Positions 17,305 to 46,977 of a DNA stretch of 64,000 nt are shown here, in pieces (positions within the stretch are counted from its first letter, which is position 1; each line of letters starts with the position of its first letter). Location of the stretch: assembly GCA_973851085.1 (NCBI GenBank), contig OZ316776.1:12586001-12650000 (forward strand), read 5' to 3'. The notes under the pieces were generated by a model that was not told the DNA's origin, did not search any database, and saw only the letters and a program-made list of their open reading frames with translations. Position numbers and translations under genes: made by a program. The stretch comes from Ptychomitrium polyphyllum (lineage: Eukaryota).

Positions 17305-19722
17305 AGCCATCTCACCATCAATTTAGTTGTCTCACTTTGCTATGCTGTCAACATCTTTACGGCCAAAAGGAAGTGGAGCTAGGTCTTTTATGATGGAATT
17401 TCATAATTCAAGCAAGGACGAGTCGCCAACGAGGTTCTGTACGGATTGATGTTTTGTGCATCAGTCTACATTTTGAGTAGGCCAAGGTTCTGGAAATTAT
17501 AAATAGTTTCTGGTTAGCTGGATTGCACAGGGACTTTCAAGGAATAACTGCTTTATGCTTTTCCCAGGCTTGGAAGGAAGATGTACCATACTTTGGAAAC
17601 GTCACAGGATGCTGAAGTGGTAGTGAAAATGTATATGATTTTTTGCCCTGTTGTAAGTTTCCGATTATGGTATTGGACTGGGCCATTGAACTGACCAGTG
17701 CAATCATTTTTCCAAGAGAAAGCATGCCACTTAAATTGCCTTAAATTGCGCTCCATACACTTTTTGTTTTTCGGTGTGAGTTTGCTTCTCTGTGAACAGT
17801 GAGCTCCAAGCATGTTCAAGCCAGTTGAACGGGCTTCACCTAAAAAGAAGATATCTTAGCGGCTTCTCAGTATGAGACACTAAGACTTCATCGGAAAAAA
17901 TACATGGTATAAAACTAAACTGAACATGCAAATTTCACTTGAGGCAGCATTCAACACATAACATTCTTCACTGACACCCTCCGAACACCCTCGCCCATTG
18001 CTACTGCAAATGCAGAAAAATGTAGAAGTTTCTACGTTTTCATTGGTCCTTTGACTTCATTCTTCTCGAAAGCATGAAAACAAGTTAAGAATAGTTAAAG
18101 TAGAGGAAAGCACACAAAGAGCGATAACATGAGCAATAAGTAAAAAGAGCTGCAGGAGGCAGTAGAAGCAAACAAAAATTTAGCCCACAACATGGGTATT
18201 TAGGCAACGAACGGTCGACTTGAAAAGATGGGAAGGTATTAAAGTATCAAGATGAAAGAAATCTCCCCCTATATCAATTTTTGAGTTGTCATTTTAAGTG
18301 CATTTCCAAGAATAGTCAACAAGAGAAAACTTTCAATAGTTGCTCCTGTGTAGGTGGCCTACTAATTTTCTCATTCATCTTCAAATTCCTTCTTGTGTGG
18401 GCAACAAGTCAAGCTGTAAAATCTAATATAAAAATTTCAAAATTTTAACTAATCATATTGTTGAAATTCCATAAATATGGCAGAAATCTCTACTCCCATA
18501 GTTGATGAAACAAGGTGTAAGGCAATTCTAATGCTTTTATGATAATGATCTAATTTGAATTTTGTCCATGTTCAAATTTAAACTATTTGGCATATACAAA
18601 AATGAAACCAAGTTATATTAAGGAATCTTAGAAATTCTCAAAAAGCATTTATTTTTAAAATCAGTTTATTTCAGAAGGATATTTAGTCAAATTCAAAAGT
18701 ATTTTTTACATGTAATAAGACTTTTTTAAGTAACATGATAATTTCAAACACACTAATTAAATTATACTCAAACAATTTCCTATAGTTTAAAAGATATCCT
18801 CTCTCAAAAACAATATAATAAATTAGGCATTTCTTTTTTTTAAATTAACTTCCAATTTTTTGCATAGTTATACTTGTTTTTTTAAAACAAAAATTACCAT
18901 TCCCTTCTAAAACATGGTAAAAGTAAATGTATTGCATATTCGTTCTAATTAATACTTTTGTAATGTTTTCTACTTAGATGTAATTTGAAGATTTTGCCTT
19001 CGCTAATATGTAATTTTATTTTCTTAGAAAACAAGTAATTATTAAAAATTGGAAACACATAGCCATTCAAAGTCCTCTAGATGTACAGAATTTATTTATT
19101 TTAAATTCAAAAACAATTTCAGATAATATCTTTAACAATTCTTGTGAGTATTAGACTAAATTTTAGAGTATTAGACTAAATTTCAATACTAATTACAACT
19201 CCTTTGTAGCATAATAAGTACTAAAACTTTCGTTGTACTTCAATATCCAAGGTTTGAAAAACACATAAGCTTAAAAGCATAATATAATAATCAAACAAAA
19301 GAAGCGAATCCTTTGCAAAAAAGTTCTTCTCTGAAAAGGTTACCCTCCAAAAAAGTTCAAATCTCTACTGCTCTGCTTCTAGAAGTATTTCCTTTCAAAC
19401 GATTCGAAACAACTCTGAATTAAAGGCCGACTCGTGCTGCTCAAATTTCTCAACACACCTAGTTGCAAGAACTGCGGTGGTGTACATTGAGCTTGTACCT
19501 CTGTTTCGATAGAAAAATGAAAATCTTCAGGAGCTTTGCGAGCACAAGAAGCTTAAGAAAGGCCCATTCAATTTAGTCCCAAATAAAAATAATGAACAAT
19601 AATTCCTAGAGACTCCTCTCCTCCTGAGATACTCAGTGTGTGCGGTTTCGCAGCTGGGAACTCCAACAGCAATGGTACACAGCTCCTAATCCTAGCCAAC
19701 GTAATGATACACTTCAAAATGT

Positions 19723-20733
19723 TCAGTCGCCATTTGCTCGCTGTCGAAGAACCCTGTTGTCCTCAGGTAAATCGCACATAAAGTTTCCATTCCCATTACT
19801 CCTGCCTAAATGATATCTAGCCAGATTCTTGTTATCACCGAAACTGGAATCCCAGACCCTAACATCCTCATATCTAACTTCATGGCTGGGTGAAGCCAAC
19901 GTAAGAATCTCCTGGGTCCGCTTTAACCAGTCTGAGTTCAATCTGCGTGCAAAATCCTCAACCTCTCTGTCCACAATCTCCTTCAAAACAGGGTCTAAGC
20001 CGTCATCGTCAAAATCTCCCTCTTCAAACACCTTGTCCTGGTCTCTTAGCAACCTGTTATGATGCTCAAGAATTGTGTTGCTTGCCCCTCTCGCTCGTGG
20101 AATACTTCTGCCAAGCTCTTGTACTGCTTTTCCAGTATCCAGTTCGACGTCAACAGCTTCATTGGTGGAGTCAGTCTGGAGCCGAGATGCCACTGCCCCA
20201 CTTGAATCATCACTCTGGCCCTTCTTCCGCCGGTTCTTCTTCTTCTTGGGTCTGCCTACTTTGTTGTTCTTATTTTCACCATCAATAAAGGAAACCAATT
20301 CTTCTACAGAGCGCTCATCCTTAACTTGCTTCTCATTAGGGGAGTCTATAGCGTTGCTTTTGAGAAGCTTCTTTTCCTGAAGCTCCTTCCGCTTTCGAGC
20401 ATAGAGCCGATTCAACAACCTAATTCGAGGGTCATCGGTCATCATTTTGACAGGTTCGAGTTTCTCTTCCTCCGTTAAGTCGTCTGGTAGGTGAAATATT
20501 TCTCGTATTTGCTCAGGGGTTTTGCCTTCAATCATGCGTGCCAGGGCCCGACTTGTTAAGTCACCCAGCGGCTTCATGTCAAGACTATTTGCTGCTGATG
20601 CTAATTCACACAGCCTTCGTGTGTCTAGCCGCACAAACTTCTCATCAAAGAGTTTGCGCTCCTTATCAGACCGCCCAGGAACCCTGTGGAACCGACAATA
20701 CTCCAATACTAGTTTGAGTGCTCCTGGACTAAC
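19723..20733 (-). CDS. SKP1-like (ASK20/ASK21-type) coding sequence; intronless, lacks the N-terminus; terminal exon of the chimeric gene
   Basis: YCRFH.VPGRSDKERK.FDEKFVR.DT.RLCEL, DLTSRALARMIEGKTPEQIREIFHLPDDLTEEEKLEP, DDPRIRLLNRLYARKRKEL and DREVEDFARRLNSDW match the ASK21 type. The segment is preceded by acceptor ggtgcag|GTT. Confidence 0.9.
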   Translation of the reverse strand, partial: VSPGALKLVLEYCRFHRVPGRSDKERKLFDEKFVRLDTRRLCELASAANSLDMKPLGDLTSRALARMIEGKTPEQIREIFHLPDDLTEEEKLEPVKMMTDDPRIRLLNRLYARKRKELQEKKLLKSNAIDSPNEKQVKDERSVEELVSFIDGENKNNKVGRPKKKKNRRKKGQSDDSSGAVASRLQTDSTNEAVDVELDTGKAVQELGRSIPRARGASNTILEHHNRLLRDQDKVFEEGDFDDDGLDPVLKEIVDREVEDFARRLNSDWLKRTQEILTLASPSHEVRYEDVRVWDSSFGDNKNLARYHLGRSNGNGNFMCDLPEDNRVLRQRANGD

Positions 20734-21059
20734 CTGCACCATAGCACAACCCAAGCAACCTGAATTGAAACCACTGCAATCAATTCCTAATTCATCCCCA
20801 AAGAGAGAACTGATCGGTTTGTTTCAAAACTATGCCTGTGCTAGGTTGCTATTTGCAGGAACGATGCAAAAGAGACATACTATTCATCCACAAAAGACGC
20901 CCTCAACGACCACACATTGCTTTAACATAAGTGAATTTTGCCAGAAACCTAATAATTCGTGATAAACTATGAAGACCCTACCAAAAAATCATTAAGAAAT
21001 GGGCCCTATCTTCATCCTGACATACAAAGATTAGACCAAGAGTGATGTCAAGCACTCAC

Positions 21060-23012
21060 AGATTTGAACTTCTTCAGTTCACGTCTGGCAACTTTGCCTC
21101 GCCAAGCACACTGAAACGTGATAGCACCCTTACGCAGTTGTTTATATTGAGACCTGGTCTTCAATCCACGCCACCAAGCCTACAGAAGAAAACAGAAACA
21201 AACCCATCTTAGCCTCTTCGGATCAAAAAGCAGTTAAGTAGAGCGGTTGTAAGTTATCTGCTGATACTAGCAGCAATAAATCACCAACAAAGAACTCCAT
21301 AAATCAGGATGTGATATAACAAGGACTACAAACCTCCTCAAGACATAAACAGCAGCAACTTCATCATAGCATTTAGATCCGAGATGTAGTCGAATACATT
21401 GACTGCAATGTTTGGCAACATTACCTCAACAAAGGCACTGCATTATTTCAAGCAAAATGAAACAAAAAATTATAGACCTCAACTTCCTCAAGCCCGGTTG
21501 CTCATAAAGAAACCAAACACACAGCCCAATACCTGAATAATGGTGGCAGCTCTTGTCCGCTCGCTCAATTCATATTCATTGTGACCTATGTTTGTCTCCA
21601 TATACGTTTTGCAAGTAAGGGTCCCTACACATAAACACATCAGAAGTAGACAAACTGATAAGAACCTAACTACACACCACTTACAAGAAAATCCCAGATC
21701 TAAATTAAATAAATAGAAGGTATATCAACAAAGAATATAAGAACTGCATTTCTTCCTAAACCCATACCTCGCCAATATTTCTGAATTGTAACAGCAGCCA
21801 TTTCCATGGCTAGCAAGTCTTGCCTTTGGATCTTTATTGCTACGTTGCCCAACATCTCAGCTTTCTTTCTATCAAGTTCAGTCATTTCCCCAGATCGTAA
21901 AAAAACCTTCAAGTTTAACTCTCCAAATGGCGCCCCTTCATATTGTTCCATTTTGTGGTTGTTATGAAAAATGCGGTAATTCAACAACAAGATTAATCGC
22001 AATCAAAATACTTCTTGAATCTGTCTGGCATCCACAATCCATAAGCAACGTTAGATACCATAAACGCATACATTTATGCGGCCAAGAAAAACGCCTAATT
22101 TTTATCTTGGTTGACTCCTGTCAATCTGAGTCACTTGACAGCACACTTACCCAGCTCCCATCTACTTGCAAGAATGTACAGTAATGCTGGCTCATGGAGA
22201 TAAGCTAACTTCATCATATCATCCACGCATCCAGGTTGTGCATTTGTATCCTTGGCATAAATAGTGAATCTGTTTGACGACACCTGCATCAGAAGCAACA
22301 ACATGCACACACCTTTGTATCAAAAACAAACATAATCAAAACAACTTTCTGTTTTATAATGCTTGTTAAGAATCGTTTTCCTTATACTAAGAAAATCAAC
22401 AGATAGACTTACTATTACTGTTGAAGGCAATTCTTGGCTTCTATTAAATGAGTAAATGATCCTTGCTTCGGATATAGTACTACATATCACAATAGTGACG
22501 TGATGCCAGATGTTAAAATACAAATTCAGGTAATACTGAAGGGAAAAAGCTGGCTATTTGTGATGTCATGACAGCAAAAGTTGGCATATCCTCAGAGTGA
22601 CAGGTCTCATTCGATGACTTATAATTAGACTAGTCCTCTCAATATTCTTAAAACCTCCAAGAGGATCGAATGATGCAACTCAATAGCATCAGTAAAATCC
22701 CAGTAAAGCTAAGGTTCGAACAGCTAACTAAGTTGAAAGATGACAAGCTCAACGATGAATTTATTATTTCACGGTCCTGAACAGTACAAAAAATACACGT
22801 ACCAACATATTGATTTAAAATCATGCAGATAAGTCCATTTCCGAAGACCAAGGATGCTAGAACTAATGACTGCAAATATTTACCTCATATCCCTTAAAAC
22901 TGCGGATCTTAAATTTCTTGCCATCAATCTCTGTGATCTCTGCTTCTACCCAGGCCAAATCTGCGTCCTCCACCCAGACTTGGACACCGTTAACCACATT
23001 ACCAGCTATCGC
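21060..23012 (-). CDS. Internally deleted myosin XI duplicate forming the 5' part of a myosin XI::SKP1-like chimera; exons 23012-22884, 22283-22151, 22020-21768, 21624-21533, 21179-21060; one 1-nt frameshift at 21967-21971
   Basis: Exon-by-exon homology to exons 2, 3, 4/20, 21 and 22 of the + strand myosin XI (e.g. [64 protein letters not shown]). GT-AG sites are retained. The start codon upstream of the first exon is unresolved. Confidence 0.8.
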
Positions 23013-25449
23013 CTGCTAGAAACCGGCAAAAATATCAACTCTCAAATCATCATTATGCTAGCATTATCAATCAAGCAATGGAACGCACAAGACTAATCAA
23101 TAGAAGAACACGCTAATATAAAAAGTTTAGAGTACAAAAACATATGGTCTACTTACCCTAATTTTAAAACTCAACAACACTGAAGCACCAGGTCGTTGGA
23201 GTCTGGAATTGAGGTGGAATAACGATCACTATTACTGCAAAGCTCCTCAGTGTCCTGCATTAATTGATGTACGATATTGTCGTGGTCAGGAATCCTTAGC
23301 CCCTCGTTGTCACTGGCATGTTCACAGTATCTGATTAAATCAGCACACCAATGGCCCCATTCAACAGTAATTAGAAACCAATTGAATGAAAAGATACATG
23401 ATCCCACACACTACAGACTATTAATACAGGGGTTTCACCAGCAGAAGGCATGGCAAACCAAGATATCTTCCAAATGCTGCCTTTATACTCAAGTGTTGCC
23501 ACAAAAATAGTCGCACTGAAATGCTCCAAAAACTCCCGACTTCGAAGCAATGCAAAACAAGCAACTTTCAAACAATTGGAAGCAAAAGTCCATTCTCAGG
23601 ATCAAGCTTCCCACACCAAAATCATGTTCTTAATGTCCAAATCCGAAACACTATCGCCAAATGCCTCGCTAATACCCACTGAGCTCATTTCCTTAACCTC
23701 TCCTCAAAACCACCAGCTCCTCCAAGCAGAAACGACCGAACAGGGCGAAAACGAAATCAGCTTCCACCACTACCATCACAAACAAATTGCAGCTCCCCAA
23801 CCTCCAGTCCAATTCCAAAACAAAACCAACACCACCACTACACCGCCCAGGACGAACCACTCATAATCACGACAACAGAGACCACCACCACTGCACAAAC
23901 TCAACCAAACCAAAACTCTCAACAGCTCCCGCAACGAAAACCAAAATCACCACCTACCGGCGTGACAACCAAGAATTGGCCGCCACCACAAACGACCGCA
24001 TTGCAATTCCCAAACCCGCCCCCAAAACCGCGACCAAACCCCGTCATCCCTCCCGCCCTCAAACTTCCAAGCAAAATCGAAAAGCCAAAACCACATAACG
24101 CTGTGAAGACAAAACTTCCTACCTCATTATCAGGCTCCAGCACGGTGGCCCTCGTACGGGCCGTGGTGGCGCACTACTGCAGTGCAGCGACGGATCTCGC
24201 GCACGGCCGGAGCGCGGTGTGCGGACTACAGCAGAGTGCCGAGCCGGCCGCGGGAGCGCGAGTGAAGTGCGGACGCGAGGCGAAGCAAGAGGGCGCGCGC
24301 CATGGATCCTCGAAACCCTAGAAAGCTTGAAATGATTCCGCAACGCTGCGAGACAACCAACATCCACACCACTGCCTTCCCTGCGCAGCCCCGACCGCTC
24401 CCCGCGCTCGCTGCGACGCTATCTGCGCAACTTCTAGATTTCAGAACGCCTGGTGTTCGCCTCCCATAGATGATGTAAGGTTCCGGTTGGGAGAAGGGCA
24501 GGGCGGGCGCGACGGGCGGGCGGGCAGTGCGGGGCCGGAGCGTGGGTTGGGAGGAAGGAAGTACGAAACCCGCGCTCCACTCAGTGGCATCGACAGTATC
24601 TACGGATTTTCTAGACTTTGGAGGCATTTGGTAGATGATGTTGGTTTTACGTACGGGGACATCCGCGACGGGCAGGAGGGCAGAGAGGAGAGTAAATCGT
24701 GACTAGGCGGAGGAACCGTCACTTGTCGCAGAAACGTGGAAACTGTCCACGTGGTTTCTAGATTTACGTTGTCAAATCTATACCAGTGGTAGATTCTGGC
24801 GGTATTTCGTGCAACGGCGATTGTAAGTGCTTTCAAGCCCCGTTCCGTTTCAGCGGTGGAGCGCTGTTGCAGTGCATTGCCTCAGAATCACAGGATGTCT
24901 GCTTATTGCAAAGTGTTAAGCCCTGGCCTTTAAGGCCACGGTCGGCCGAGTTGAATGCAGAATCCGCCCTCACTTAATCGGCAACCCAGACCTATTCTGC
25001 GCCTCCCAGCCGTTCCCATGGTGTTCCCATATCATTCCCTGTCCTTAACGCCAGGGATCCAGCTAGGGAGCACCGCTTGTGCCTCCCGCTCGACCTGTGA
25101 GTTCGCGCTCGCAGGCCCGCGCAAAAGCTGTGCAGGGGCTTCAATCGGCCCTCCGCGGTCCGTTCCCTAGAACATGAATTCCCTGGGGAAACAGAGCGGA
25201 ATCGCTCTCGGACACTCCTATGCTGCGTTGAATTGTGCATTGCATCATGTGAGTTGTGCATGGCTGTGCTTCACAGCCAGTTCGTGAGCCTTGAGAACGC
25301 AGGGAACTGCTTTGAGAATTCTGGGAGCGGCTTGGGCTCAGCCCCAAGTTACACGTTCGAGGAATGTAATTTACTCGAGCTGCCACCTCGGGTGTAATCC
25401 GTTGCATTTGCACCCTTGTTTATAGGGTAGGCTACATTGCATTTTAACA

Positions 25450-28400
25450 TTATGGAAGGATTACTCTTACTACCAATGATGGGACGAGCTAAGACCCTTT
25501 TTCAGACATTAAAGTGTTTTTAGGTTTAATCTATATTGTATTTAAGACACTTTAGCTTCTTAAGGCACTTTAGCTTTTTAAGAGAACCTCGTAATTAATT
25601 CTCATTTTATTAATGTTTTTTGAAAATCAAATGAATGAAGACTTTGATGAGATTGAATTTCTTTTAATTTTATGAATAAATGTTGTATTTATTGCATGAA
25701 GTTTCAAAGCATCATATCATTGCCACGCATGTCTAATCATTTTTATTAGTTTTTTAATTTAATAGATTTGTCATATTGTTGTTTAAAATTGGAAAGAAAT
25801 CAAAATGCATGGTATGTAGGATTGAAAAAAATTAATAAATGTAAATAGAGTCTAAGACAAAAATTTGACTTTAAAGAAAAAAGATTTTTAAAAATATGCA
25901 AAACTGTTAAAAAAAAATCTATCTTTTAAGTCTAAGCAACTACAATTATTTTTTGTCATGTTGTTAAATTTTCAACAAAAAAATTAATAAAGATACTATT
26001 CACTTATTTCTATTAGATTTGCTTATGAATTAAGAAATCCATTGCAAATTCTTGTCAATGTATGAAGTCTTAGAAATGTTGACATCCAAAGTTTTTAAAA
26101 TATAAATGTGATGATAATTAAATTAAACTATTATGATAAAAATAAGGCATTTATTGAATTTCAATTTGGATTTTTGAAGTATATTCTTTCTTTGAATGTA
26201 AATCATGCAAAAAAATCAAGTGGAAGATGGAATTTTCAAAAAGATAATTACAACATATTATATGTAAATTATAAAATTAATTTGGAATAAATTATTTCAT
26301 ATTTTACATATAGGCTGGTAAATTTTAGCCAACATATATTATAATGTCATTTCTAATAATATTTGACAAAGTTGGTGCAAAAATATCATAATTTTGTCTA
26401 ATATTATTATCCATTCATTTCTTCAATTTGCCATTTTTGCTAAAAAATTAATTTCCAATTTAACATCTTCTTGTAGAATTCTTGGTTTTGATAAATGTGC
26501 TTTAAAGGATATTGGTATAAAATTTTGTTTCTTTATTTACACATTGTGCACTATAAGATTAACAATTCAATAAAAAAAAAAGTAAAAATTATATATTTTT
26601 ATACAATTGATAATTTATGCATTAAATGGATGAATGTACCATAAAGATGTATTATAAAAAACTTTATGGTCCATTAATATGGAATGTATAGTAATGTCAT
26701 ATAGAAAGTGATGTAAAATTCATATATTCTATCATATCTACCAACAAATTACAATATTTTTAAACATGTTTTTAAATGATTGTTTAGAAGCCATTGTAAA
26801 TCAATGCAAAAAATATAATGATGACATAATAATTGAAATAACCCTTTATTTTCACAAAAAGATTAAGTATTTAATATGATATTATTTAATAAATACAAAA
26901 TGTAAAGAATTCTATTACCTTTGAATTCATATTTTAATATTTCAGCTTTATATAATTCATTATTCATATTTTATTTTATTTTAATGTTGAAAGCCTGGAA
27001 AGAAAAAAATTAAAACATGTAGATTCAATAATGAACCATATGTGATATAATTTAGGATATTAAATTATTTGTATTAAAAAAAAAACAATCAATGATTACT
27101 TTTGGCATCTAAAACAAGATTTTTAAAAATAAACAATTCATTTGGTATATTATATTATAATAGATTCAATATTTTTGCAATTCATTGTACAAAAAATGTA
27201 TATTATTTGATTTATTTGTTATAGAAATAAATGAATATCAATATTTTATATTTTTTTGTTTATTTTTAAAAAAACTAAATTTTTCAAACATAATTGAATT
27301 TTATGCAAGAATTAAAAAATACATAATAGTATCAAAAGTTTAATATTATTAATAGACTGGAAACCATTAAAATTTTATTATAAAAAAACACCAAACATGA
27401 AATTTTGAACAATATTAATATAATTTTTATATGCGCAATATTATAATTTTTATATTTTAAATAAAAATCCAAATTAAAATTAATGTATACAATATAATAA
27501 ATTGCTAGTACTCTTATGAAGTTTTATGCTAAAATGACAAATCAAAATTTTTGACGTTTTATTGTAATTATTTGAACATAATTTCATTAATAAAATTTTA
27601 TAATCAAATGATTAAATTGACTTTTTAATTCTATAACATAGATTTATGGATCAATAAGATACTACTTAAGTTTAAAAAAGTTTGTTAAATGACTTGCTCT
27701 TTACTTGTCAATTGCATGAATAGATATTAAATTTGGTATGAATTTTTTTCTCAAAGAATTATAAAATTAAAATCAAATGAAAATATTGCATACTATTGTA
27801 CATCCTTTTAATTTCAAATTTCCATGATATAAGACTTATTTTCTTTTTAGCATTTGCAAAAAATATTGATAATGAATATAATTTCTAACATAATTTACTA
27901 TATAAAATTATAGATGTATTCACTCATTTTAATATTATAATTCATTGTTATTTTCATAAAAAACTAAAATATAATATATTGTTTGTCTTTCTTCTAATCA
28001 AAATAATAATGAAGACATTATTAAAATTAGACAATAATAGAATTTTGACAAAATCACAAAAACAGCAAAAAAAAATGGTTTAAAAAATTTCACTAGGATA
28101 TTACAAAAATTAAAGTCTCATCACATAAGCTTAATTTATAATAAGTCAAATTATTGTGCATTATAGTAAATGAACAAAAAGCAAAAAAAATAAGAGCAAT
28201 CACTTTTGAATGTTTCTTGTGACAAATGGAAGCAAATAAAACTCTCTTTTTATTGATTGTAATTAAAAGGTAAGCATGAATTTGGAAGTTTGTTACATCT
28301 ATTGGTATAATAATAGCCATAACCAAATTATTGTCAAAATCTTAGCAAGAAGACAACACGAGATATTATTATAAGTATCACTATGAGATCACATAAGTAT

Positions 28401-31014: not shown

Positions 31015-34000
31015 ATGGTGAGTGATGGAGGACTGGAGTGGATTTCCGGGGCCGGGCGTGCTTAGGGTTGAATGCTGCGGAGGGCGCGGATCGGGCGCCC
31101 TCTGTTGGACGGAGTCGTTTCGTTTAGGTTGCCGCTGTATTTGGCTGCGTTGTGTGTTGATGCGGACGGGCAGTGGCCGGGTGTTTGGTCGCGTGTGATC
31201 TCTCTCGGTGGCGCTGCCGCGGGGGGCGTTGCGTCGCTCGAGGGGGTGGAATTTGGGGCGTACGAGGTGCTCTAATGCCAGCGTCATGACCTAATGGACG
31301 GGCGCGACTGTGTGCGGTTTGGATTGGAGTTTGTTTGCGGTGGCAGGGATTGGAGATGCGGTCGCTAGTGTGGCAAGTAGCGTAGGTGAATCGCAATGTG
31401 GCTCCGTGCTTTGGAGATTCCTGGTTCTTACGCGAGATGGTTTACTTTTTGGTGCACATTTTTGAAGGAATGAGCTTGGCCGAGTCGATGCAGCTCTTCG
31501 TTGCGTATTCGGTTTGTTTGTGTGATATCGCCTTCAGATTTGAATGGGCGGTGGACTTTAGGATAGAGCGCACGGCCTGATTACGCCGTGCTGCACACAG
31601 CTCTCCCCCTGTTATCTGGCTCTTGGTACCTCGGTGAATTGGTGACAGCTATTCTGTGAACCGAGAGACACAAGCTCGTTGAGCTTTCGCGACGATTGGC
31701 GAGGTCTGTGATTTTCGGATATGGAGCTGGGCATTGGTAACGTGCGGTGAGAATTTTCTTGATCGCCATGCTCAAACCAAAATCAGCTTCTCTGGGAGCT
31801 CGCAATGCAAATGGACTGGATTTTCGAACGCCATCGTTGTAGATCCCTTTGATCAGTAGGAGCTGAGGAGTTATTACGTTGAGGAGCCAGTGGTTCTGTT
31901 ATGCTGATCCCGCACAGTTAGTTGGACACCGGGGCGTTTGTGTGAAGGGTTTTTTTCCTTGAGCCTCTCTGTGCCCTGTTCTAGCCTTGGCTCCTATCAC
32001 GTGTAATAATAGCGGTCGAGTCTCAGATCGGAGACGTGAGGCACGTGAACGCTCCTTGGTTGTCGATATTTTACGTTGTCATATCCCAATACTTCCCCCC
32101 CGTATTTTCCGCTCAGACCGGTGGGGTTCCAGGCCGTGATTACTTATCTGGGCGTAGGACTATCTGCTTGGAGCTCTGTCCATGTATGGCATTTGATGGA
32201 CTCCGCCATCCTCTTCGTTTTATGGTCATAACCTTTGCTACCAATGGGCACGCTCTCGTGTGGGAGTGTTTCTGAACGCGGACCTCTTATGCTGGTTTTG
32301 TGCAGGCGGCAACAGGTAATGTGGCGATTGGGGCCCAGGTCTGGGTGGAGGACCCGGATTTGGCCTGGGCGGAAGGAGAGGCCCTCGAGATCAATGACAA
32401 GAAAGTCACGGTCCGCACCAGCAAGGGAAACGAGGTAAATGCAGTACCGCTTGAAACTGGTGATCATCCAGCTTAGTGGGTGTCAAGATACTCTTTGTTC
32501 GTCTTTTCTTCAGCATGCATGGACATAGGGCTCGACCAAGGCCTCAGCAGGTTTGGATACTTGAGAAGTAGCCGGAGCAATCGTGCGTTGGTTGATGCTT
32601 AGGCAAGTGACAGAGCGCATACTTGCGAAATCCCTCGATCGTTGTGTCCCGTTCGTCAGTGCCTTTGGCGCGTCATAGGCCATATCGATGTCTTTCCTGT
32701 GAGACGACACTCCACATCAGCATCCACGCAGTAGAGTGTTCATAAGTGATGTACATGATGTTCTTACAGGTCTATAAATTTGTGTCACTGTCTCCGATGC
32801 AGGTCACAACGAGCATATCAAGTATTCATGCCAAGGACCCAGATGCACAGCCTGGTGGTGTGGACGACATGACGAAGTTGGCATATCTGCATGAGCCAGG
32901 AGTGTTGTACAACCTTGCAAGTAGATATGAACTGGATGAGATCTACGTGAGTTTTTCAAACGACCCTGACTTGCATCCTGGTTACTCGTTTCTCTTGTGG
33001 CCGTATACTGGAAGAGCTGGCAGACTCGGTGTTGAACAATATTTGCTGGTGGTGGATGGCAGACATACACCGGGAATATCTTGATTGCGATCAATCCCTT
33101 CGTGAAGCTGCCGCACTTGTACAATAGCCATATGATGGAGCAATATAGGGGGGCACCACTTGGAGAGCTCAGCCCTCATGTCTTTGCAGTGGCGGATGCT
33201 TCATACAGGTATATCTACCTTACCTCCAAAACAGAGAAGCGTACAGTGATGCGTGTTTATTGGCACGGGTTTGGTGCACGATAAGCACACGATGTGCGCA
33301 TGCTCACTCTTGGCTGATGATTTTCCCTCGTTTACATACAGTACGGCCACTTCTGTGAGTGCTGGTCACCAGTTATTCGGTCCAGGTGACGAGTTGAAGT
33401 TGCATGCAGATTGAAAGAGCTGTAATGCGCTGTAAAGCGACGAATTGTTGATGAATGGTAGTCTTGTTGTGTAGGACCGTGAAGCTTGCACCTAACTCCG
33501 AGAGCCTGTGTTGTACTGCAGAGCAATGATCAATGAGAAGAGGAGTCAATCTATACTGGTGAGTGGAGAGAGTGGAGCTGGAAAGACAGAGACAACCAAG
33601 TTGATCATGCAGTATTTGGCTTACATGGGTGGCCGAGCCAACACCGATGGGCGAACTGTTGAGCAACAAGTTCTTGAGGTGCGTTCTCTTTCACCTCCTT
33701 CGATGTGCTTCACGAATCTGCAATGCTGAGATGTCGACTTCGAGAATCTCCCCTGATTTGTGATCCTCATTTGTCGAGCATCCTTCGGGGTTTTCATCGT
33801 TTCACCGTGTCTGACATCCAGTACGTCACGGTGATCAGTTGGGATTTGCACCTCTGGCTTTCTTCGTTTCGAACAAGACTACTACTTGCGTCGGTCGAAG
33901 CAATCCAGTCTGAATTGAGAATTATAATGAGTGCAGTCCAGAAGTACAATGAGGACCATGAGTTCATGAATGGGTTGCCGCTTCATGTAAGCGAGCACGA

Positions 34001-37000
34001 TGGTTGCAATCGGGATGTCCATAAACATTTGACGCTCATAATGGAAAGTCACGCATGGCATGTTTGCAGATGTAAGTTAAACTGGGAGATTTAAGTAATG
34101 AAAGCAAATCCGTCACTGGTCACGTCTAGGGAAGATCCTTTTGTTTGTGCTTGAAATGAGCTTGAGAAGGTGCAACCCTTATCTCAGCAGATTCAAGAAA
34201 GGATAGATGAAAGCAAATCCACGAAAGAGAAAAGGCGTAAAAATCTATCAAACTTCTGGAAGAGAGGTGAAAAGATAAGGTCCCTGCAGAAAGGTCCGAA
34301 GGAAAAGGCATTTGTTATCGAGAAAGTACATCAGTTGTACACAGTTGAGGGCCTACCTGCTCCTTTGCATAATGTTGAACGAACATAAGAATAACTATGG
34401 TAACTCCGACACAAGAATCTAGTGTGTAGCACTGTGGTAAGAACACATGAGGCTTAGGCGCAATGGAGGCAGAGGAGGGCGATACTCCTGTACTCACATG
34501 ATGCTCTCTGGTTTGTTCGATGTGCAGTCCAATCCGCTTCTGGAAGCTTTCGGAAATGCCAAGACAGTTCGCAACGACAACTCGAGGTACGTTGAGTTTT
34601 CTGTGTGCACTTGGCAGGCACAGTCCTGCAGCCTCGTACGATTGTCGTGTGCTGGTACCCGGGGATTAGCTGGATATCCGAAGCAGACAGCTACTAATTC
34701 TGCTGTTGTGTGGGCATCAGCCGATTCGGTAAGTTCGTGGAGATCCAGTTCGATAGGAGTGGCCGAATATCTGGCGCTGCTGTGCGTACGTACTTGCTGG
34801 AGAGATCTCGAGTTGTGCAAATTGCAGACCCTGAAAGAAATTACCACTGCTTTTACCAGCTGTGTGCGTCACCAGAGGTACAAGTCATACCCACGTGAAG
34901 ATTGGACATCCTGTTCGGTGTGGTATGTGCGGTGGATCGTTACGTAGTCCGTGCTTGTTCTCAGGCAAGCAGGGACGCGAGCGACGTGATCCAAGCACAC
35001 GAGACCCACGTGCAGTAGGGGGATGGGAGTGACCATGGAAGAGTCGTTAAGTTCGACAGTGCATTGGAGGCACTGTGTCTTTCTTCAATGTTGGACTAGG
35101 TTTTGCTGACCGAATAGTTGTTTTTTCAGGATTGCGAAAGATACAAGCTGGGGGATCCGAAAAGTTTTCATTACTTGAATCAAAGTGACTGTTTTGAGTT
35201 GAGCGGTGTGAGCAACGGTCGGGAATATGTGAAGACTCGCAGGGCTATGGATGTCGTGGGTATCAACCCAGACGAGCAGGTCTGATGATTTTCTGGCAGA
35301 CCTTAGGTGGCATTTTAGATTCTTTGTTGTGGGCAACTGTAACCAAGTGGCCCTAAACATTTGCCAGTGTTCCATAGTCGATCGCAAGTCATGTGCCACA
35401 GTCAGTATGTCTCTCCATCCTGTAAATCTTGCTGTTCTCATTTCACTTCCATCGAGTTCTCGTGCTGATTCGATGTGTTCCGACGTCTTGTGCTCCAGGA
35501 AGCCATTTTTCGGGTAGTAGCATCAGTGCTACATTTGGGAAATATCGACTTTGTCGCAGGGCCAGATTCCGACTCATCGGAGCTCAAAGATGAGAAGTCC
35601 AAGTTCCATCTGGAGGCTGCTGCAGAGCTGCTCCAGTGAGTCCCACGTCACACACACGTTTCTCCCTCCCTCGCAAGCCATGATTTATACCACTTTGTTA
35701 GGAAGATGTCTTGGCGCTAGAACTCCGGATTCCTGTGTAACATTTTTCTGTTGTCGATGGCTTACGCAGGTCTAAATCATGTTAGTATGGTACCTTACTG
35801 GCTGTCTGTTCTCTTTCTGGTAGATGTGAACCGAAGGGGCTGTTGGATTCACTGTGTACCCGAGTCCTCGTTACACGGGATGGGAATATCACAATGACTT
35901 TGAATGTGGATCAAGCCACCGTTAACCGCGACACCTTGGCGAAGACGATCTACTCTCGCCTGTTTGACTGGTAAAGCTCGTGCCGATCTTTTGGTGAATG
36001 GCTGGGGATGATCTTTGAAGGCTGTGGATTTGTGACCGTGTATTTCGTTCTGTTTCCTGCAGAAGTTGAACTTGATGACTCTATGTAGCGTTGTGGTTCG
36101 CTTGTTTCAGGCTCGTAGACAAAGTAAACAGATCCATCGGCCAAGATCCGGATTCACCATTTCTTGTCGGTGTGTTAGATATTTATGGCTTTGAAAGCTT
36201 CAAGTTCAACAGGTAAGGCCCGACTTTCGTCTTAGGGATTAATCGTCTTCCAACGTTCGCGTCTTCTGGACATAGTTTCTGGTATAGGCGCATTTCAACG
36301 CAGTTAACAGCTCTTGGGTGAAAATCCTGGCTGTTTTGAGGGCGTTGTTTTTATTTTAGCGGTCCACCTCAGGCCCCTGCAGCTTAAGTGCCGTTTGTCA
36401 TGCTGCAGTTTTGAACAATTCTGTATAAATTTGGCCAATGAGAAGCTTCAGCAGCATTTTAACCAGGTCAGCTTTTCCCAAATTTCTGTGAACCTCTATG
36501 GTTGGAGGTGTGAATTTCTGCTGTTTAGTGTGTTCCACGAGGAATTCAGGTGTTGCCATCTTGTTCCTTGCGAGTCTGATCAACAGACGAATCTGATCAA
36601 CATCCGCGAGTGTACAGAAGGGATACTAATATAGCGTTTGCGTTGAAAGCACAGCATGTTTTCAAGATGGAGCAGGACGAGTACACCAAGGAGGCCATCA
36701 ACTGGAGCTACATTGAGTTCGTTGACAACCAAGATGTTTTGGATCTCATAGAGAAGGTTTCCTTCTTGTCCTTTGCACTCTAGCTTTTAGGATGTGCTTA
36801 TGCAAGTTGGCAGTTGCAGATGCAGTGAGCGAGTACCTTCTTGACGAAGAGACCCGTTGTTATGCAAATGCAGTGTCTGTCTTTAGCTTGTGAACTTCCG
36901 GTTGGAATCTGAAGGCAGACGTGGATCTGACGTTTTGCCAACGGCTCTTTGTTGTGCAGAAACCTTCTGGCATCATTGCTCTCCTTGACGAAGCTTGGTA

Positions 37001-40000
37001 TGCGTCACAGCATGTTCGACATCACTGTTTTTGCTGAATCACTTTTTGAATATGGAAGCCAAGCACTGCAATGAGGAATGGGTGAGGTCTTCAGGGATCT
37101 GAGGGGTTGTGCTTTTGATCTTGCAGCATGTTTCCTAAGTCTACAAATGAGACGTTTGCGACGAAGCTGTTCCAGCAGTACAGGAACCATAAGCGTTTAA
37201 GCAAGCCAAAGCTTGCTCGCACTGACTTCACGATAAATCATTATGCTGGGGATGTGAGCACCGGACTCTCTTGTCCCTGATTTGCTGATATGGCTGATTG
37301 GTCAATGTCTCCTCAAGGTCGAGTTTGTTTTTCTGCTTCTACCAGTTCCTTCATTGGGATGCAGAGGCGTTTCGGTAGAGCATTCGCTGTCAGTACGTTT
37401 CCGGGCACTGACAACATACTCTTACGACTTGGCAGGTTACGTATCAGACCGAATTGTTTCTGGATAAGAACAAAGATTATGTCGTTGCTGAGCATCAGTC
37501 GTTGTTGGGATCTTCTGCCTGCCCTTTTGTCGCGAGCCTCTTCCCGAAGTCTGCTGATGAAGGCTCGAAGTCTTCATACAAGTTCTCTTCTATCGGTACT
37601 CGTTTCAAGGTTGGCAAAGATAGTCTTCCTGGATGGCTAGCATTTTCTGATCTCACGATTGGGCAGATCCTTAAAGCTGTGGTTTATCGGTGTAATGATG
37701 TATGTAAATGCTCACATACTGTGAGCATGCAGTTGATGTTTGGAATCATGCGTCTCTTCTTGACGGATCACCCCCATGTAGATACCTGGGTCTGCAAGTT
37801 AGGTTCCGTTATACTGACTGCCGAGCGAATGTGCAGCAACAACTGGGAGCGTTGATGGACACCCTGAGCACAACGGAGCCACACTACATTCGTTGTGTGA
37901 AGCCCAATATGCTGAACAAGCCTGGTCGCTTTGAGAACCAGAACGTCATCCAGCAGCTTCGATGTGGAGTGAGTTTGATTTCCTTTTGGCGGGTTCCTTT
38001 GTTTGGCTTTGGCTTCGTTCTGTGCAGATTTCGATTTTCACAGGCGGCGCAGGTCCGTTGATGCAGTCATGATGGATGTGGCTCGACCTTGTGTAGGGAG
38101 TCTTGGAGGCAATCAGGATCAGCTGTGCAGGGTACCCTACCCGGCGCACATTTTACGAGTTTCTCGACCGCTTTGGGATGCTGGCACCGGAGGTTCTGGA
38201 GGGCAAGTAAGTACTTGGATTCTTGAAAGTGTTACGTAGTTGCCAGTTGATGAGCTTTGGATACCAAGCTGACGATACGGTTTTACTTGGCTCTAGGCGA
38301 GGATAGTGTGAGGCCAGCGTTTTGAAGACATGGAGGCCTAATTTGTTCTGATGCGTTGGCGTCTTGTTGTGCTAGTTATGACGAGAAGATGGCAGCAGAG
38401 ACACTTCTGACAAAAATGAACCTGAAGAATTATCAGGTGCATAGCTTCGTCCGTCACCTCTGCTGCTTGTACAATACATGGATGGGAGTTTGATATCGTT
38501 GCTATCATTCTGCAAGGAGTCAAACGCAAGGTGCTCTGGGTAGACTCTGATTTACGATCTATGGCTGTTGGATTGGGTGGATTCAGTTGGGTCAAACAAA
38601 GGTGTTTTTGCGGTCTGGCCAAATGGCTGAACTTGATGCCAAGAGAGCTGAGATGTTGAACAACGCAGCAAGGACGATCCAGAGACAAGTCCGAACCTTC
38701 CTGGCAAGAAGGCATTTGATTGCCATGCGGAGGGCGGTAGTTACGATACAGAAATACTGGCGAGGTATGGGTTGCAGTCACGATGCAGATACACTGGCGA
38801 GGTTCCGAGACGGAGATAGATACTTCGAACTCGGTGAATCTCTGGGATATGGTACTTCCAGGTCTTTGATGCGTGAGTCGTTCCTCAGCTGTTGTGTGTC
38901 TGCCGTGTGTCTGTGCAGGGAGTCTTGCTCGAAAGCGGTATGCACGGCTGCGTCAAGAAGCTGCAGCAATATATATCCAGAAGAATGTTCGGATGTGGCT
39001 CGCTCGGAAGAAGTTCATGGAGATGAAAGACGCTGCTGTGAAGATACAAGCTGGATTCCGAGGAATGGCAGCTCGCAAGGAGTACCGATTAAGAAGACAG
39101 ACCAAGGCTGCCACCCTCATTCAGGTACGGGAGCTGTCTGCTTCAAGAGCAGTCTACAAGATCTTGTTGCATTGTTTTTATTAGGAACGGTGCAGTGACT
39201 GATGATGGCCGCATTCAACTGGTCCTTTAGCGTAGTAGCTGGTTCTGTACAGACTGGACTTGTGGTGTCATGGTTGATCTGGTGCTGCCTTGCACAGGCG
39301 CGGTGGCGTGGATACAAGGCACGATCACAATACAAGAAGTGCCGAAAGAGTGCTATCACGATTCAGTGCGCTTGGCGGGGAAGGGTGGCCAGAAATGAAC
39401 TCAAGAAGCTCAAACATGTAAAGAGCCAGCATCACTGTCATTGACATTGCTTGCAAGAGAACATTATGTTGGTGTACGCTAGTTGCTTTTTTGGCCTGTA
39501 GAGACAGTGGTTTTCAGTTCCCTAGTAGTGCGGTTTTTGTGATTTTGTTGCATATCATGCAACCATCAGGTCCAGCAGAAAGTAGCTGCTTCTCACATCT
39601 CGACGAATGATGTACGTCCCGTTGCTTTTCTCGGTGACGTCCGTGTCGAATGATGCTTTTGGGACGTTTTTCCCGAACTTGTTTTGTGGTTTGTGTAGGC
39701 TGCAAAGGAAACTGGGGCATTGCAAGAAGCGAAAACGAAGCTGGAGAAGAGATGCGAGGAGCTCACGTGGCGTCTGCAACTCGAGAAACGCATGCGGGTA
39801 TGTCTGTGCACATTGTTGGTGGAGGCTCTTTGGTTGGGAGCTCAACTGTGTGTGCGCATTGACAAATCGAGTTCTATGTGTGGACCCTTGGGATTCCTTA
39901 GCTCCTTGTTTGTCTGGTTTTTCTGAGAATTGTGAAGCGGAACACGAAAGTGGTGGGAGGGCAGAAAGTACGTAGCGATGTCAGTGGGCATCCATGCTAA

Positions 40001-43000
40001 CGGAAGTTGCAATATACTGTACTGCGATTGCTGTGCAGACGGACATGGAGGAAGCTAAAAATCAAGAGATCGCGAAGTTGCAAGGAGCATTACAAGAACA
40101 GTTGATGCAAGCGCAGAAAGCCAACTCACAGCTTGCAAAGGAGCTTGAAGATAATAGAGTGGCCCTTGGCCAAGCCGCTCAGGTTATAAAGGAAGTGCCT
40201 CCTGTGGAAGTGTTTGACGCTAAAGTGAAAAAGCTCACGGAAGATAACGAAAAGCTGCAGGTATGCTGCGCAAACCAATTCATCAGTGTTCTTCTTTGGC
40301 TCCGTTGCTCTGTTGTGTGATGATAGTGAATGTTGGATAAGTTCATCTGGGTTACGATCACAAATAGGAGCAATACTCTGGCCTGCGACATTTACCCAAT
40401 GGCGTTCTGCTTTGTGGTTTGTGCAGGCCCTCCTGAAGTCCTTAGAGAAGAGAGCATCAGAAGCCGAAGAGGACTTTGCGAGAGCTAAACATGAAAGTGA
40501 GGAGAGCCTTAAAAGAGCTGAGCAAGCAGAAACCAAGATCACTGAAACACAAGAAGCTCTCCAAAGGTCTGTTTTGCAATCCAGTGCCTGGCTGAGTTTG
40601 GGTGCTCATCTGGGCCGTTTCTGGGCTATCGGGATGTGACTTCTGTTCATTTGTGCAGAGTGTCGATCTTAGTCCGGCTATTGCGCAACATTGTAGGAGT
40701 TGGCTATGAAGTTTTGGTGTGTAGAATAGACATCTGAGTGTTTGCTTCGGCACAGATTGGAAGAAAAGCTGGCCAACATGGAGTCCGAAAATCAAGTTCT
40801 TCGGCAACAGACCCTTGTATCATCACCAACCAAGGGCTTGTCGAACCGATTCAAGAGCACAGTGTTTCAGGTGAGATACCATGTGACATGGTGATCCTGT
40901 CTCATTCTCATGTGAAGTACGCGTATGTACTGGTTTTGGTGTCCTTCGCTAGGTTGAAATCGGCTTAGTTTCTTGAAGTTCTTAACCCTTTTCACGATCG
41001 GTGTATGCTCGGTATCTTTCATTTCTCAGCCCTTCCAGAACTGCATCTACAGCTAAGTCGTGTCTTACATCAGACCATCTCTTCCGCCAGGTTTTGTGTG
41101 TATGTTACTAACATGTGTGCTGTACCCCTTCCGTTACTTTTTTCAGAGGACTCCAGATAATGGCTACCTTGCCAACAATGACCACAGAGAAACTCCTCGT
41201 TCAGTACCGGTGAGGAGTTGATTTCTTCGCTGCTTGTCATGTTATGTGTTGTATAGGTTCCAGCCGGATTTTCTTACGTATCACAATTTATGCTCTTGGC
41301 TTTGCATAAAACTCCCTAGATATTCTGTGGAAGAGGTTGATTTTCGTTGTTGCATCGTAATCAGCGGGTGGAGTTTGTTGTTCAGTTGGAAGGACCAGGT
41401 TGGACTTTGGGTTACTTCATGTTCGAAGAGTAATCTCAAGTTTTTCTCTGTGTTTGCAGGAGTCGCCGAACACAGCCCAAATTGAGAGGGAGCATAGTGA
41501 GGCTGAGCAGAGGCGCCAGAAATTGCTTATTGATAGACAACAGGTAGGCTTTAGTCGGTTGGTCGATCGTTGCCGGATATTTGTTAGACAAGGCTTAGAG
41601 TCGAATGTGAAATCTCATGCCGGCCATCTACGGATGCTAGAGCAGAGTGTCGTTTCCAGTATCTTCGCGTACTGTGCAAACGAGAAGGATCAGACACCGG
41701 ATTGTATGATATCCTTTGTGGTTTTTAATCTGATACTAAGATTGAACCACTTTCCAGACCTGATTTTACTTGTGCAACTGTTCGTGCAGGAGAATCAAGA
41801 TTCGTTACTGCAGTGTGTCATGCAAGACGTTGGCTTCAACAACGATCGTCCAATTGCCGCTTGTATATTATACAAGTCCTTGCTCCAATGGCGTTCTTTC
41901 GAGGCAGAGAGGACTAATGTCTTCGATCGAATCATTCAAACGATTGGCACTGCTATCGAAGTAAGTGGAGTATCTAAAATGCTGCGTGAGTTGTAGTTCC
42001 TAGGATCTCAAGCAGTTCTCGATGAGAGCACTCCTCGACGCATGGTCAACCCTAGATTCATCATTTATTGCAAGTTTGTCGCATCGGCTGAAACCTGGTG
42101 CGGTTCCCTCCCAGTGTCGAACGGCGTGCCTTCATTGCCTCTGATGAACTGCAGGAAAAACATTCTGTGCTCCGAATCTGAGTCAGCTGACCCTTATTTG
42201 GAAACGACTTTATTTAGCAGGTTCTAACTAAAGAACCTGTTCATTTGCAGACTCAAGATAACAATGATGTGCTCGCGTACTGGCTGTCCAACACCTCTAC
42301 TCTGCTATTCCTTCTGCAACGGACTCTTAAAGCCAGCGGAGCTGCAGGGGGTGCTCCTCAAAGGCGACGCTCTAATTCTGTGACACTGTTTGGGAGAATG
42401 ACGCAAGTAAGTGACCGATCTGCTGAGGCTGAGCAACGTAATAATGACGTTTGCTGAATCTCTACACGATTGTACATTTCTAGGATCTGTTTAGTCGGGT
42501 TGACCAGATTTCAGTTAGAACTCTATGTTTCCACTATCATTCGTGTGTAGAATGAAGGTTCTGACCTTTCAGAAGGGCTATCAGGGGTTCCGAGCGTCTC
42601 CTACCCCGGGTGCCGTCTCATTCGCGAATGGAGGCATCATGGGTGGATTAGATATGTCGCGGCAGGTTGAGGCCAAGTATCCTGCCCTGCTATTCAAGCA
42701 GCAACTCACTGCGTACGTAGAGAAGATCTATGGCATGGTCCGGGACAACTTGAAGAAGGAGATTTCACCTCTGCTTGGGCTCTGTATCCAGGTCAGATGG
42801 TGTTTCATCCTGCTTATTCGTGTACCGAGCGTACAAGTTCAAACGATTCAGTGATGTTTGTATCCCATGAGGGATTGCTGTAGTCCTTAAATATGAAGGT
42901 GCAATTTTCAAGGTGTTCCTTCTGTCCGCCTCTTTGGTGTCATGCTGACGGAACCTTCCAAAACTTTCTGGCAGGCCCCGAGGACATCGAGGGCTAGTCT

Positions 43001-44914
43001 AGGCAAGGTGTCAAGGTCGCCGAGTTCGAGCGTAAGTGCACAGCAGACACTCAGCAGCCACTGGCACAGTATCATCTCCAGCCTCAGTTCATTGCTGAGC
43101 ACCATGCGCGCCAACCATGTGAGCCTCCGGATCTGCGTGTTTTTCTGTTCTGTTGAAGCCTTTACTTTTCCCGCAACTTCTCACACATGATTCAGACAAG
43201 CACAAGGTAGTGCTTATATTTATAGCCAGCTCTGAGTTGTGACGTGCTGAATGCAGGTCCCTCCGTTCCTTGTTCGCAAGCTCTTCACCCAAATCTTCTC
43301 GTTCATCAATGTACAGCTATTCAACAGGTCAGGCCTTTCTGTGAATGGTGACTAGATGCCGAAGACGATTCTTTTTCTTCAACTCTATTTCTTCGAAAAC
43401 TCATCATATACTCTGGATCAAGTCTGTGGCGTCCTTGAGTGAGTCCCTGACTTCTGGAGTGAAGTTTGCTGTGCCAATCTAAGCTTTTGTACGGGGATCG
43501 TGCATTGGGTTCATTGCAGTTTACTTCTGCGGCGGGAGTGTTGCTCATTCAGCAATGGAGAATATGTGAAAGCTGGACTCGCAGAACTTGAGCACTGGAT
43601 ATATGAAGCTGGGCAGGAGGTACCGTCCTTAATGTGTCGAGCAATACAGAGTTCATCCATCAGCACTTGCATAGGGTTTTGATTTCGATTCCGGTTTATT
43701 TATAGTCGATGTGTTTGATGGGTTCGTGGGCTGTCCACCTTCATTCGTCGATTCTACAGTTTGTCGAACTGATCCGTGTTGTCCGCAGTATGCTGGAGCA
43801 TCATGGGATGAGCTGAAGTACATTCGACAAGCAGTTGGGTTTTTGGTATGTGCTTTCTGTCGTCCACTTGGGCATTACCTAGAATGGAGTAATACATGTT
43901 GGTTGACAGTGCTCTGGGTTTTGATCCGTGAACGTTCTCCGAGCTAACCTCTCGTAGCATCAGAATCCCGTGTTTGTCATGAATGGGACTGTTGGAGTGT
44001 GGGCCAGTTTGTTAATCTCAATTCCAGAGCTTCCGAGTTACTTCGCTGATCGTACAAAACGTCTCGCTGCTTCTGATGTTCTGGGGCTGGTCGGACAGTA
44101 CTTCTCACTCAAAATGCTCTTTTGCAGGTCATTCATCAAAAACCGAAGAAGTCGCTTGATGAGATCACCCACGATCTCTGCCCGGTAAGTTGACGGAACG
44201 TGCTGAGAACATAATCGGCAGTGGGCCTCGCTTCGAACGTGTTTGGATTGATAATTCGTGATGTAGTCAAGATCGGGAGAAGCGCATGATTACTGACGAT
44301 CATTGCTTTCCGGCAGGTGTTGAGTGTCCAGCAGCTATATCGTATTAGTACCATGTACTGGGATGACAAGTATGGTACCCATAGCGTCTCGCCGGAGGTA
44401 AGCTTCCGTTGTGTGTCATAACTTCTCCAAGAATTACATCATCAGCCGTTGCTTTGTTCCGTGAGGAGTCACTTCATCCTTTGAGCACTGACTCATGTCT
44501 TCCACTTATAGGTGATTGCGAACATGAGAGTTCTAATGACGGAGGATTCTAACAGTGCTGTCAGCAACTCCTTCTTGCTAGACGACGACTCTAGGTATGA
44601 CCAAAACCTCAGGTGATCGACGGTTGATCCATGATGATATGTGCACGTTCTGTTTGTTAAGATCTCATCTTTGCTATCACATGTTTGACCTTGGCGAGCA
44701 ACGTGGACTGCTGTATTATGTACACTAGGAACAATGCTTTTCAACTCAGAATATGGCTACTAACAGTAAGTGTTTTGTGTGCTGCAGTATCCCATTCTCC
44801 GTAGATGACATATCAAAGTCAATGCCCGAGGTTGACATGGCTGAAGTTGAGCCGCCACCTTTGTTGAAGGACAACGCTGCCTTCCACTTTCTAATGCCAC
44901 AACCAGATACATAG
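31015..44914 (+). CDS. myoXI: Class XI myosin (SH3-like N-terminus, motor, 6 IQ motifs, coiled coil, DIL/globular tail), 39 coding exons
   Basis: ATG-only first exon (31015-31017|gtgagt) and exon 2 at 32306-32434. Motor motifs [18 protein letters not shown]-loop [37 protein letters not shown] and [19 protein letters not shown] are present. IQ exons lie at 38587-39417. Tail motifs [10 protein letters not shown] and [13 protein letters not shown] are present. Stop TAG ends at 44914. Confidence 0.97.
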
Positions 44915-46969: not shown

Positions 46970-46977
46970 CGACAGCC

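Follow-up and report, generated by a model that had tools for sequence, protein, structure and literature searches.

A 64,000-nucleotide stretch of DNA from Ptychomitrium polyphyllum (contig OZ316776.1), which we call the window, carries on its minus strand a gene in which a front end of 132 codons, derived from the fused exons 4 and 20 and from exons 21 and 22 of a myosin XI gene and containing three IQ motifs, joins in frame the native last exon of a type II SKP1 (ASK21-like) gene. That this fusion gene is real and under selection we regard as nearly certain. Its 468-residue ORF runs from the ATG at 21951 through four exons bounded by GT/AG, with no internal stop (Table 1). Within our searches, the pairing of IQ and Skp1 domains was not met elsewhere.

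Table 1. Genes and exons in the window, with positions counted from its first nucleotide
Feature	Position	Strand	Remarks
Fusion gene: candidate GC-rich first exon, donor at 24122	24123..24330	-	putative, from a sequence and donor scan
Fusion gene: copy of myosin exon 2 (129 nt) with open frame and Pfam Myosin_N match	22884..23012	-	no clear in-frame start upstream
Fusion gene: myosin exon 3 copy, 133 vs 144 nt, donor shifted, open frame	22151..22283	-	likely leader or upstream ORF
Fusion gene: 5' part of myosin exon 4 copy, likely 5' leader now	21952..22024	-	T run 21971-21967 carries +1 frameshift; stop at 21964-21962
Coding exon A: begins with ATG at 21951; remnant of myosin exon 4 fused to exon 20; first IQ at end	21768..21951	-	motor deleted, 8 codons of IQ1 deleted
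Coding exon B: 92-nt myosin exon 21 remnant, fast-evolving spacer	21533..21624	-	114 nt lost in frame
Coding exon C: complete copy of myosin exon 22	21060..21179	-	second part of IQ motif 2, all of IQ motif 3; strongly conserved
Phase-0 intron with putative breakpoint	20734..21059	-	donor after myosin exon 22; acceptor end like other moss type II SKP1 genes
Coding exon D: native last exon of type II SKP1 (ASK21-like) gene	19723..20733	-	last part of POZ, then Skp1 helices, a basic stretch, an acidic motif in the tail and the stop codon
Full-length myosin XI, head to head with fusion gene	31015..44911	+	ortholog of Ceratodon M758_10G181000/181200
PLATZ gene (Pfam)	8085-8891	+	
BAH gene (Pfam)	15993-16403	+	
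MIC19	46797-47102	-	weak Pfam match
PALP gene (Pfam)	53190-53600	-	tryptophan synthase beta-like by eye
PAP_fibrillin gene (Pfam)	59653-60141	+	

The myosin-derived exons

Copies of myosin exons 2, 3, 4, 20 and 22 are found on the minus strand of the window by blastn at 69-78% identity. The first-pass annotation of this DNA had described a fusion of exon 4 to exon 20 that removed roughly 590 codons, the P-loop and switch motifs included, and our alignments bear this out: 12 codons of exon 4 (21951-21916) are followed by two junction codons (21915-21910) and by exon 20 from 21909, and in the numbering of Ceratodon myosin XI 587 codons (129-715) are replaced by two, a net loss of 585. None of the three motor motifs at 156, 211 and 433, which we take to be the P-loop, switch I and switch II, is present. 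The further loss of eight codons from exon 20 appears as a 24-nucleotide gap in the blastn alignment. Exon 21, with GT/AG ends, measures 92 nucleotides against 206 in the myosin, and here the earlier description stands in part: the net in-frame loss of 114 nucleotides is solid, but its division into 75 and 39 nucleotides (25 and 13 codons) is uncertain. A two-gap alignment with that division gives 59 matches in 90, tied with a division into 33 and 81, and a single gap gives 53; because of the tie, the loss of exactly one IQ repeat is plausible but not fixed. All of the deletions preserve the frame, as had been claimed, and the ORF runs on into the SKP1 exon (20733-19723) without a stop. The copy of exon 22 also agrees with what had been seen at first, with 29 of 40 residues identical to myosin, 11 of these encoded by different codons, and no stop.

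About three IQ motifs had been said to survive, and they are located at residues 56, 91 and 114, at spacings of 35 and 23 residues. The Pfam IQ family finds three stretches in each of two orthologs (E-values 2e-17 and 8e-19). Motifs 2 and 3 match the full consensus in all three lineages and motif 1 in two of the three; a shorter form of the consensus is given in PMC3646851. The second basic residue of the first motif has been lost in the window, which thus holds two full IQ motifs and one partial. The lever arm is accordingly shorter, with three IQ-type motifs in the fusion against six in the Ceratodon myosin. Neither a coiled coil nor a DIL cargo tail was found on the minus strand of the window, where tblastn matches to myosin end at about residue 880. 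A headless myosin was considered as the identity of the gene and dropped, as its C-terminus is the SKP1 exon and it has no myosin tail. The introns of the fusion gene gave no reliable alignment with those of the myosin (z -0.5 to 2.7).

The SKP1 part

Exon D matches the Pfam family Skp1 (PF01466) with an E-value of 4e-13, above the gathering score, and the extra C-terminal region of type II SKP1 proteins is present and aligns with Sphagnum and seed-plant members. Of 5626 candidates, a search with this exon found 863 proteins, most of which bear the name SKP1-like 21, the top match being a 469-residue protein with IQ motifs and Skp1 (P0001). In a tree built on the last exon only, the chimera clade (100/100) falls among moss type II proteins, and six core positions of the chimera differ from other mosses.

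The POZ half is largely gone. Skp1_POZ (PF03931), matched by four of four canonical proteins (E-values 1e-5 to 6e-4), finds no match in either of the two chimeras. The match in a Sphagnum protein (P0010) spans residues 76-138 and the point corresponding to the fusion is residue 123, such that 47 of the 63 residues of the match, about three quarters, are missing from the fusion, with the IQ block in their place. The structure model of the Sphagnum protein, with pLDDT mostly above 90 in this region, puts three strands and two helices before the fusion point. The retained part of the chimera aligns to SKP1 from residue 49, and its model, though weak (mean pLDDT 42, below 50 in the IQ region and 70-77 in the core), superposes on ASK1 with a Z score of 10.9 and an rmsd of 3.1 over 102 residues. 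Judging by the alignments and the model, the helices that bind F-box domains are kept in the fusion protein, which likely binds F-box proteins.

No second full-depth copy of the SKP1 exon was found at 80% likeness in the contigs of the run, though such contigs cannot show absence. An in-frame ATG at 20742 (minus strand), just before the acceptor of the SKP1 exon, could start a short isoform. Matches below threshold to the Pfam families VipE and RHH_ERCC6L2 were put down to chance or shared helices.

Orthologs and distribution

Whether chimeras in relatives share the deletions, a question raised with the first description, can be answered from the protein searches: the same junction and every deletion length recur in P0001, P0122 and P0123, which have the same layout. 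These three are the full-length members of a cluster of seven around P0001, and the full-length orthologs begin at the same Met as the ORF of the window. P0122, of 469 residues, is annotated as hypothetical in two Ceratodon purpureus assemblies (M758_10G180700, KC19_10G185100), and P0001 and P0123 were found on five and four Logan contigs respectively, each of at most 2407 nucleotides. A fourth lineage (P0323) has the same fused exon, read on into its intron, and the length and junction of exon A are identical in P0001, P0122 and P0323. Since other Logan calls (P0323, P0124) read into introns, the continuous 469-residue ORFs of P0001 and P0123 most likely come from spliced transcripts.

Residues 1-140 as a query returned one protein among 271 candidates, and of the 374 proteins gathered in total, 284 have the type II core and just three of these also have IQ motifs, all of them orthologs. 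Within the reach of these searches, the fusion therefore looks confined to Ceratodon and near relatives. Among the 120 listed of the 863 matches to the last exon, Sphagnum, Marchantia and Selaginella are named, and neither a second type II SKP1 of Ceratodon nor one of Physcomitrium patens is; a loss of type II SKP1 in Funariaceae is possible. Scans for ortholog DNA found two distant loci among 272 metagenome stretches, and nothing in 32 genome and five viral stretches. The two metagenome loci (L001, 9809-10552; L002, 3064-3570) hold divergent intronless ORFs resembling type II SKP1 at 48-49% identity, possibly plant retrocopies. A coconut protein (P0006) contains two tandem type II SKP1 units and is probably an annotation merge.

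Selection on the fusion gene

Over the 99 alignable coding codons, the fusion gene and the neighbouring myosin differ with a pS of 0.52 and a pN of 0.157, giving a pN/pS of 0.30 (95% bootstrap interval 0.19-0.46). Because the myosin branch is itself constrained, we also simulated a neutral copy. At most 2% of the runs reached a ratio so low in each of six settings of 400 runs, and no run combined so low a pN with the absence of stops. With the neutral copy rejected and the deletions common to the orthologs, the original proposal of an old duplicate kept open by selection holds up. The reading frame has been maintained because the myosin exons form the N-terminus of the IQ-SKP1 fusion.

As far as the alignments indicate, constraint is not uniform along the gene and is concentrated in exon 22 among the myosin-derived exons. 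At the protein level, on which all comparisons among orthologs were made, and across three lineages (the window, P0001 and P0122), variable columns number 15 of 61 in exon 4/20, 17 of 31 in exon 21, 2 of 40 in exon 22 and 1 of 123 in the SKP1 core, the difference between exons 21 and 22 having a Fisher p of 4e-6. When the window is compared with Ceratodon, exon 21 is identical at 16 of 31 residues in the chimera against 67 of 69 in the myosin (p=1e-7); the remnant keeps its length and frame while its residues drift. Exon 22 is identical at 38 of 40 residues in the chimera and 36 of 40 in the myosin. Nine of its residues are fixed in all three chimeras and absent from all four myosins, and by this comparison of sequences exon 22 changed on the stem and has since been in stasis.

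Upstream exons and leader

All of the defects of the gene, namely the frameshift and stop in exon 4, the shifted donor of exon 3 and the lack of a clear in-frame first ATG, lie upstream of the start that the orthologs share. The copies of exons 2 and 3 form 87 open codons with a pN/pS of 0.39, about as constrained as the coding part. Neutrality is rejected for these exons if at least half of the synonymous change is placed on the copy (P 0.000-0.062), and is not rejected if 30% is (P 0.19 and 0.54). They were probably coding for part of their history. The shifted donor and the acceptor can hold the frame into exon 4, where the +1 insertion then brings a stop 10 nucleotides before the main ATG; this upstream part of exon 4, frameshift included, is identical in a contig of run X1, which is possibly the source of the assembly. 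A longer protein including Myosin_N was unsupported, as only two of the eight candidate donors scanned had an upstream in-frame Met, both weak.

The main ATG has acquired an A-rich context. As a leader, exons 1-4 would contain 13 upstream ATGs, which could suppress translation. The Myosin_N exons (22884-23012 and 22151-22283, minus strand) may represent an upstream ORF, of 41 codons from a Met pair in exon 3, or a recent loss. The candidate first exon contains at 24303-24229 (minus strand) a 25-codon ORF rich in Arg, Leu, Ser and Ala that by eye resembles an organelle transit peptide, and it may be the remnant of a third gene.

The neighbouring myosin XI

The myosin XI on the plus strand is covered exon by exon by tblastn, and its exon 21 matches Ceratodon purpureus M758_10G181000 at 67 of 68 residues. 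Over exons 2-3, 79 of 87 residues are identical between the window and Ceratodon, so that the window comes from a relative with a sequence of its own. The Ceratodon fusion gene (M758_10G180700) is close by locus tag to the myosin XI loci M758_10G181000 and M758_10G181200, so the neighbourhood is conserved. These two Ceratodon loci encode near-identical proteins. In run X1, the region 30703-39500 of the myosin XI is on a separate contig with two letter differences and a depth of 93.4, compared to 43.8 for the fusion gene; a collapsed second copy is likely, contig depth not being a true copy number. Intron 20 of the myosin contains at 38772-38807 a degenerate repeat of the end of exon 20 with its donor, a possible alternative donor. 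The two head-to-head genes are separated by a very AT-rich spacer (25500-30250; GC about 0.19-0.22) with short repeats shared with other contigs, and elsewhere in the window (12866-13009) a 45-nucleotide unit is repeated in three tandem copies.

Origin of the fusion

Sphagnum genomic read-through ORFs (P0141, P0009) have an intron exactly at the fusion point followed by a single long last exon, and the SKP1 exon of the fusion is for this reason regarded as native; a retrocopy origin was rejected, since the Sphagnum genes share the exon layout. Both the end of myosin exon 22 and the start of the SKP1 exon are in phase 0. As in exon shuffling, the two parts thus meet at an intron junction of matching phase, with the fused ORF present in the Ceratodon annotation and in Logan contigs and the splicing in the window predicted. 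Two sequencing runs of one sample, neither recorded as RNA, gave no splice joints when compared with the window, a result that carries no information on expression. A tree of the IQ region sets the chimeras apart from all of the myosins and puts the duplication before the split of the window and Ceratodon lineages; it gives no order for the duplication and the Physcomitrium split.

In the simplest history, as we infer it, the 5' half of a myosin XI gene was partially duplicated in inverted orientation, the duplicate joined a SKP1 gene inside a phase-0 intron, and the first coding exon of SKP1 was displaced at the joining. Deletions would then have taken the motor together with most of the lever arm, with exon 22 adapting and then freezing, and the SH3-like upstream exons would later have fallen out of frame, an internal Met becoming the start. 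The constraint on exons 2-3 is accounted for in this model only by their late loss.

Possible functions

In SKP1, the C-terminal helices are the binding site for F-box domains, and the POZ part has a share in binding CUL1. To our knowledge, the binding partners of type II SKP1 proteins are poorly known. Given the retained helical half and the lost POZ strands, the reading that we favour, tentatively and while a little readier to see it fail than hold, is that the fusion is a calmodulin-binding SKP1 variant that would hold F-box proteins and couple poorly to CUL1. By prediction, the last two IQ motifs likely bind proteins of the calmodulin family, the retained Skp1 helices likely hold F-box proteins and CUL1 coupling is poor after the loss of POZ; together these would make the protein a calcium-sensitive holder of F-box proteins and not an ordinary SCF bridge. 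CUL1 binding may nevertheless persist, because part of the CUL1 surface lies in the retained helices. The contact of the C-terminal helix with the F-box is confirmed in the accessible part of a paper on NLRP14 (PMC13237083), and neither that part nor the accessible part of PMC3511428 contains data on the CUL1 interface or on ASK20/21 binding.

It is unlikely, though it deserves serious weight, that the gene works but the main contribution of the myosin piece was instead a promoter and a start codon, together with a helix to cap the core bared by the loss of the POZ strands, with any calmodulin binding incidental. The model aligns residues 120-131, at the end of exon 22, with ASK1 from about residue 35, three of the nine fixed changes (125, 130 and 132) are within that end, and the drift of exon 21 is also in keeping with such a role. 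However, the pLDDT of residues 120-131 is only about 44-55, and exon 22 is conserved along its whole length of 40 residues, the two IQ patterns far from the junction among them.

We think it rather unlikely that calmodulin gates the only type II SKP1 of the lineage, with Ca2+/calmodulin on the IQ motifs setting the hold and release of F-box proteins and the SH3-like exons working as a regulatory upstream ORF. If true, calcium signals would act directly on the adaptor at the core of SCF ligases.

The near invariance of the SKP1 core might suggest that the SKP1 exon alone matters, possibly as the sole type II SKP1, and that the myosin exons are merely in frame, or that a short protein starts from the ATG at 20742. 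An in-frame ATG (Met) is indeed found one or two codons before this exon in five of the seven genomic read-through ORFs displayed, and the lack of a second Ceratodon type II SKP1 among the 120 matches listed of 863 gives a faint hint in the same direction. We consider this improbable, as exon 22 is as conserved in the chimera as it is in myosin and the complete fusion ORF is present on short Logan contigs.

Decidedly improbable is a role in regulating myosin, where the protein would compete for light chains with the myosin XI next to it, or direct ubiquitination machinery to the light-chain pool, and so tune tip growth. The IQ motifs do come from myosin XI, and the genes are head to head in the window and neighbours in Ceratodon, but local duplication alone explains the neighbourhood, the coiled coil and cargo tail are gone, the IQ residues differ from those of myosin at nine fixed sites and a basic stretch at residues 295-303 suggests a nuclear location. 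A decaying pseudogene or an assembly artefact is hardly credible and largely refuted: though exon 4 has a frameshift and stop, exon 3 a shifted donor and the gene no clear in-frame first ATG, every defect precedes the shared start, the same ORF is found in other lineages, a neutral copy is rejected for the coding part, and one contig of run X1, possibly the source of the assembly, spans 19000-25500 with no differences to the window.

Comparison with known systems

Type II SKP1 proteins (Arabidopsis ASK20 and ASK21, with members in Sphagnum, Marchantia and Selaginella) share with the fusion the Skp1 dimerisation domain and a long extension at the C-terminus that carries basic and acidic motifs; the fusion differs in having three IQ motifs in place of the 47 missing Skp1_POZ residues. 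As far as the accessible parts of the papers describe them, type II proteins consist of Skp1_POZ, Skp1 and an extra C-terminal region (PMC5426791), and the expression of ASK20/21 is low and constant (PMC3511428). The headless derivatives of myosin XI, such as headless XI-K in Arabidopsis and Brachypodium and the short transcript of maize O1, likewise arose by partial duplication of myosin XI with loss of the motor. According to the accessible part of the same source (PMC3935558), however, the short form of O1 has lost the IQ motifs and retained its coiled coil and DIL tail, whereas our fusion keeps IQ motifs, drops the tail and is joined to an unrelated gene. The Sec10-formin fusion For1F is, in the accessible part of its description (PMC5839782), also a fusion of two unrelated genes that is restricted to mosses and has been kept across species, but it is found in most mosses and joins whole domains, while the IQ-SKP1 fusion is found in Ceratodon and close relatives only and is made of trimmed fragments. 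The competition of mammalian FBXL2 and calmodulin for IQ motifs (PMC3646851) similarly ties calmodulin, IQ motifs and SCF ligases together, with the difference that there the F-box protein recognises an IQ motif carried by the substrate, and in the fusion the IQ motifs are on the SKP1 subunit. The myosin XI lever arm itself is the source of the exon boundaries, phases and IQ sequence of the fusion, which lacks the motor and has half as many IQ motifs, three to six.

We found no description of an IQ-SKP1 fusion in the literature, though the gene could figure in gene-family tables published with moss genomes. It offers a traceable case of a new gene made from scraps of a motor protein, in which the deletions, the burst of fixed changes and the later freezing can all still be read. 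Conservation of type II SKP1 genes extends from algae to seed plants, and few studies have dealt with them. As a natural POZ-poor variant in a laboratory moss, the fusion would let the roles of both halves of the protein be tested, and with them whether calcium may directly control an SCF adaptor.
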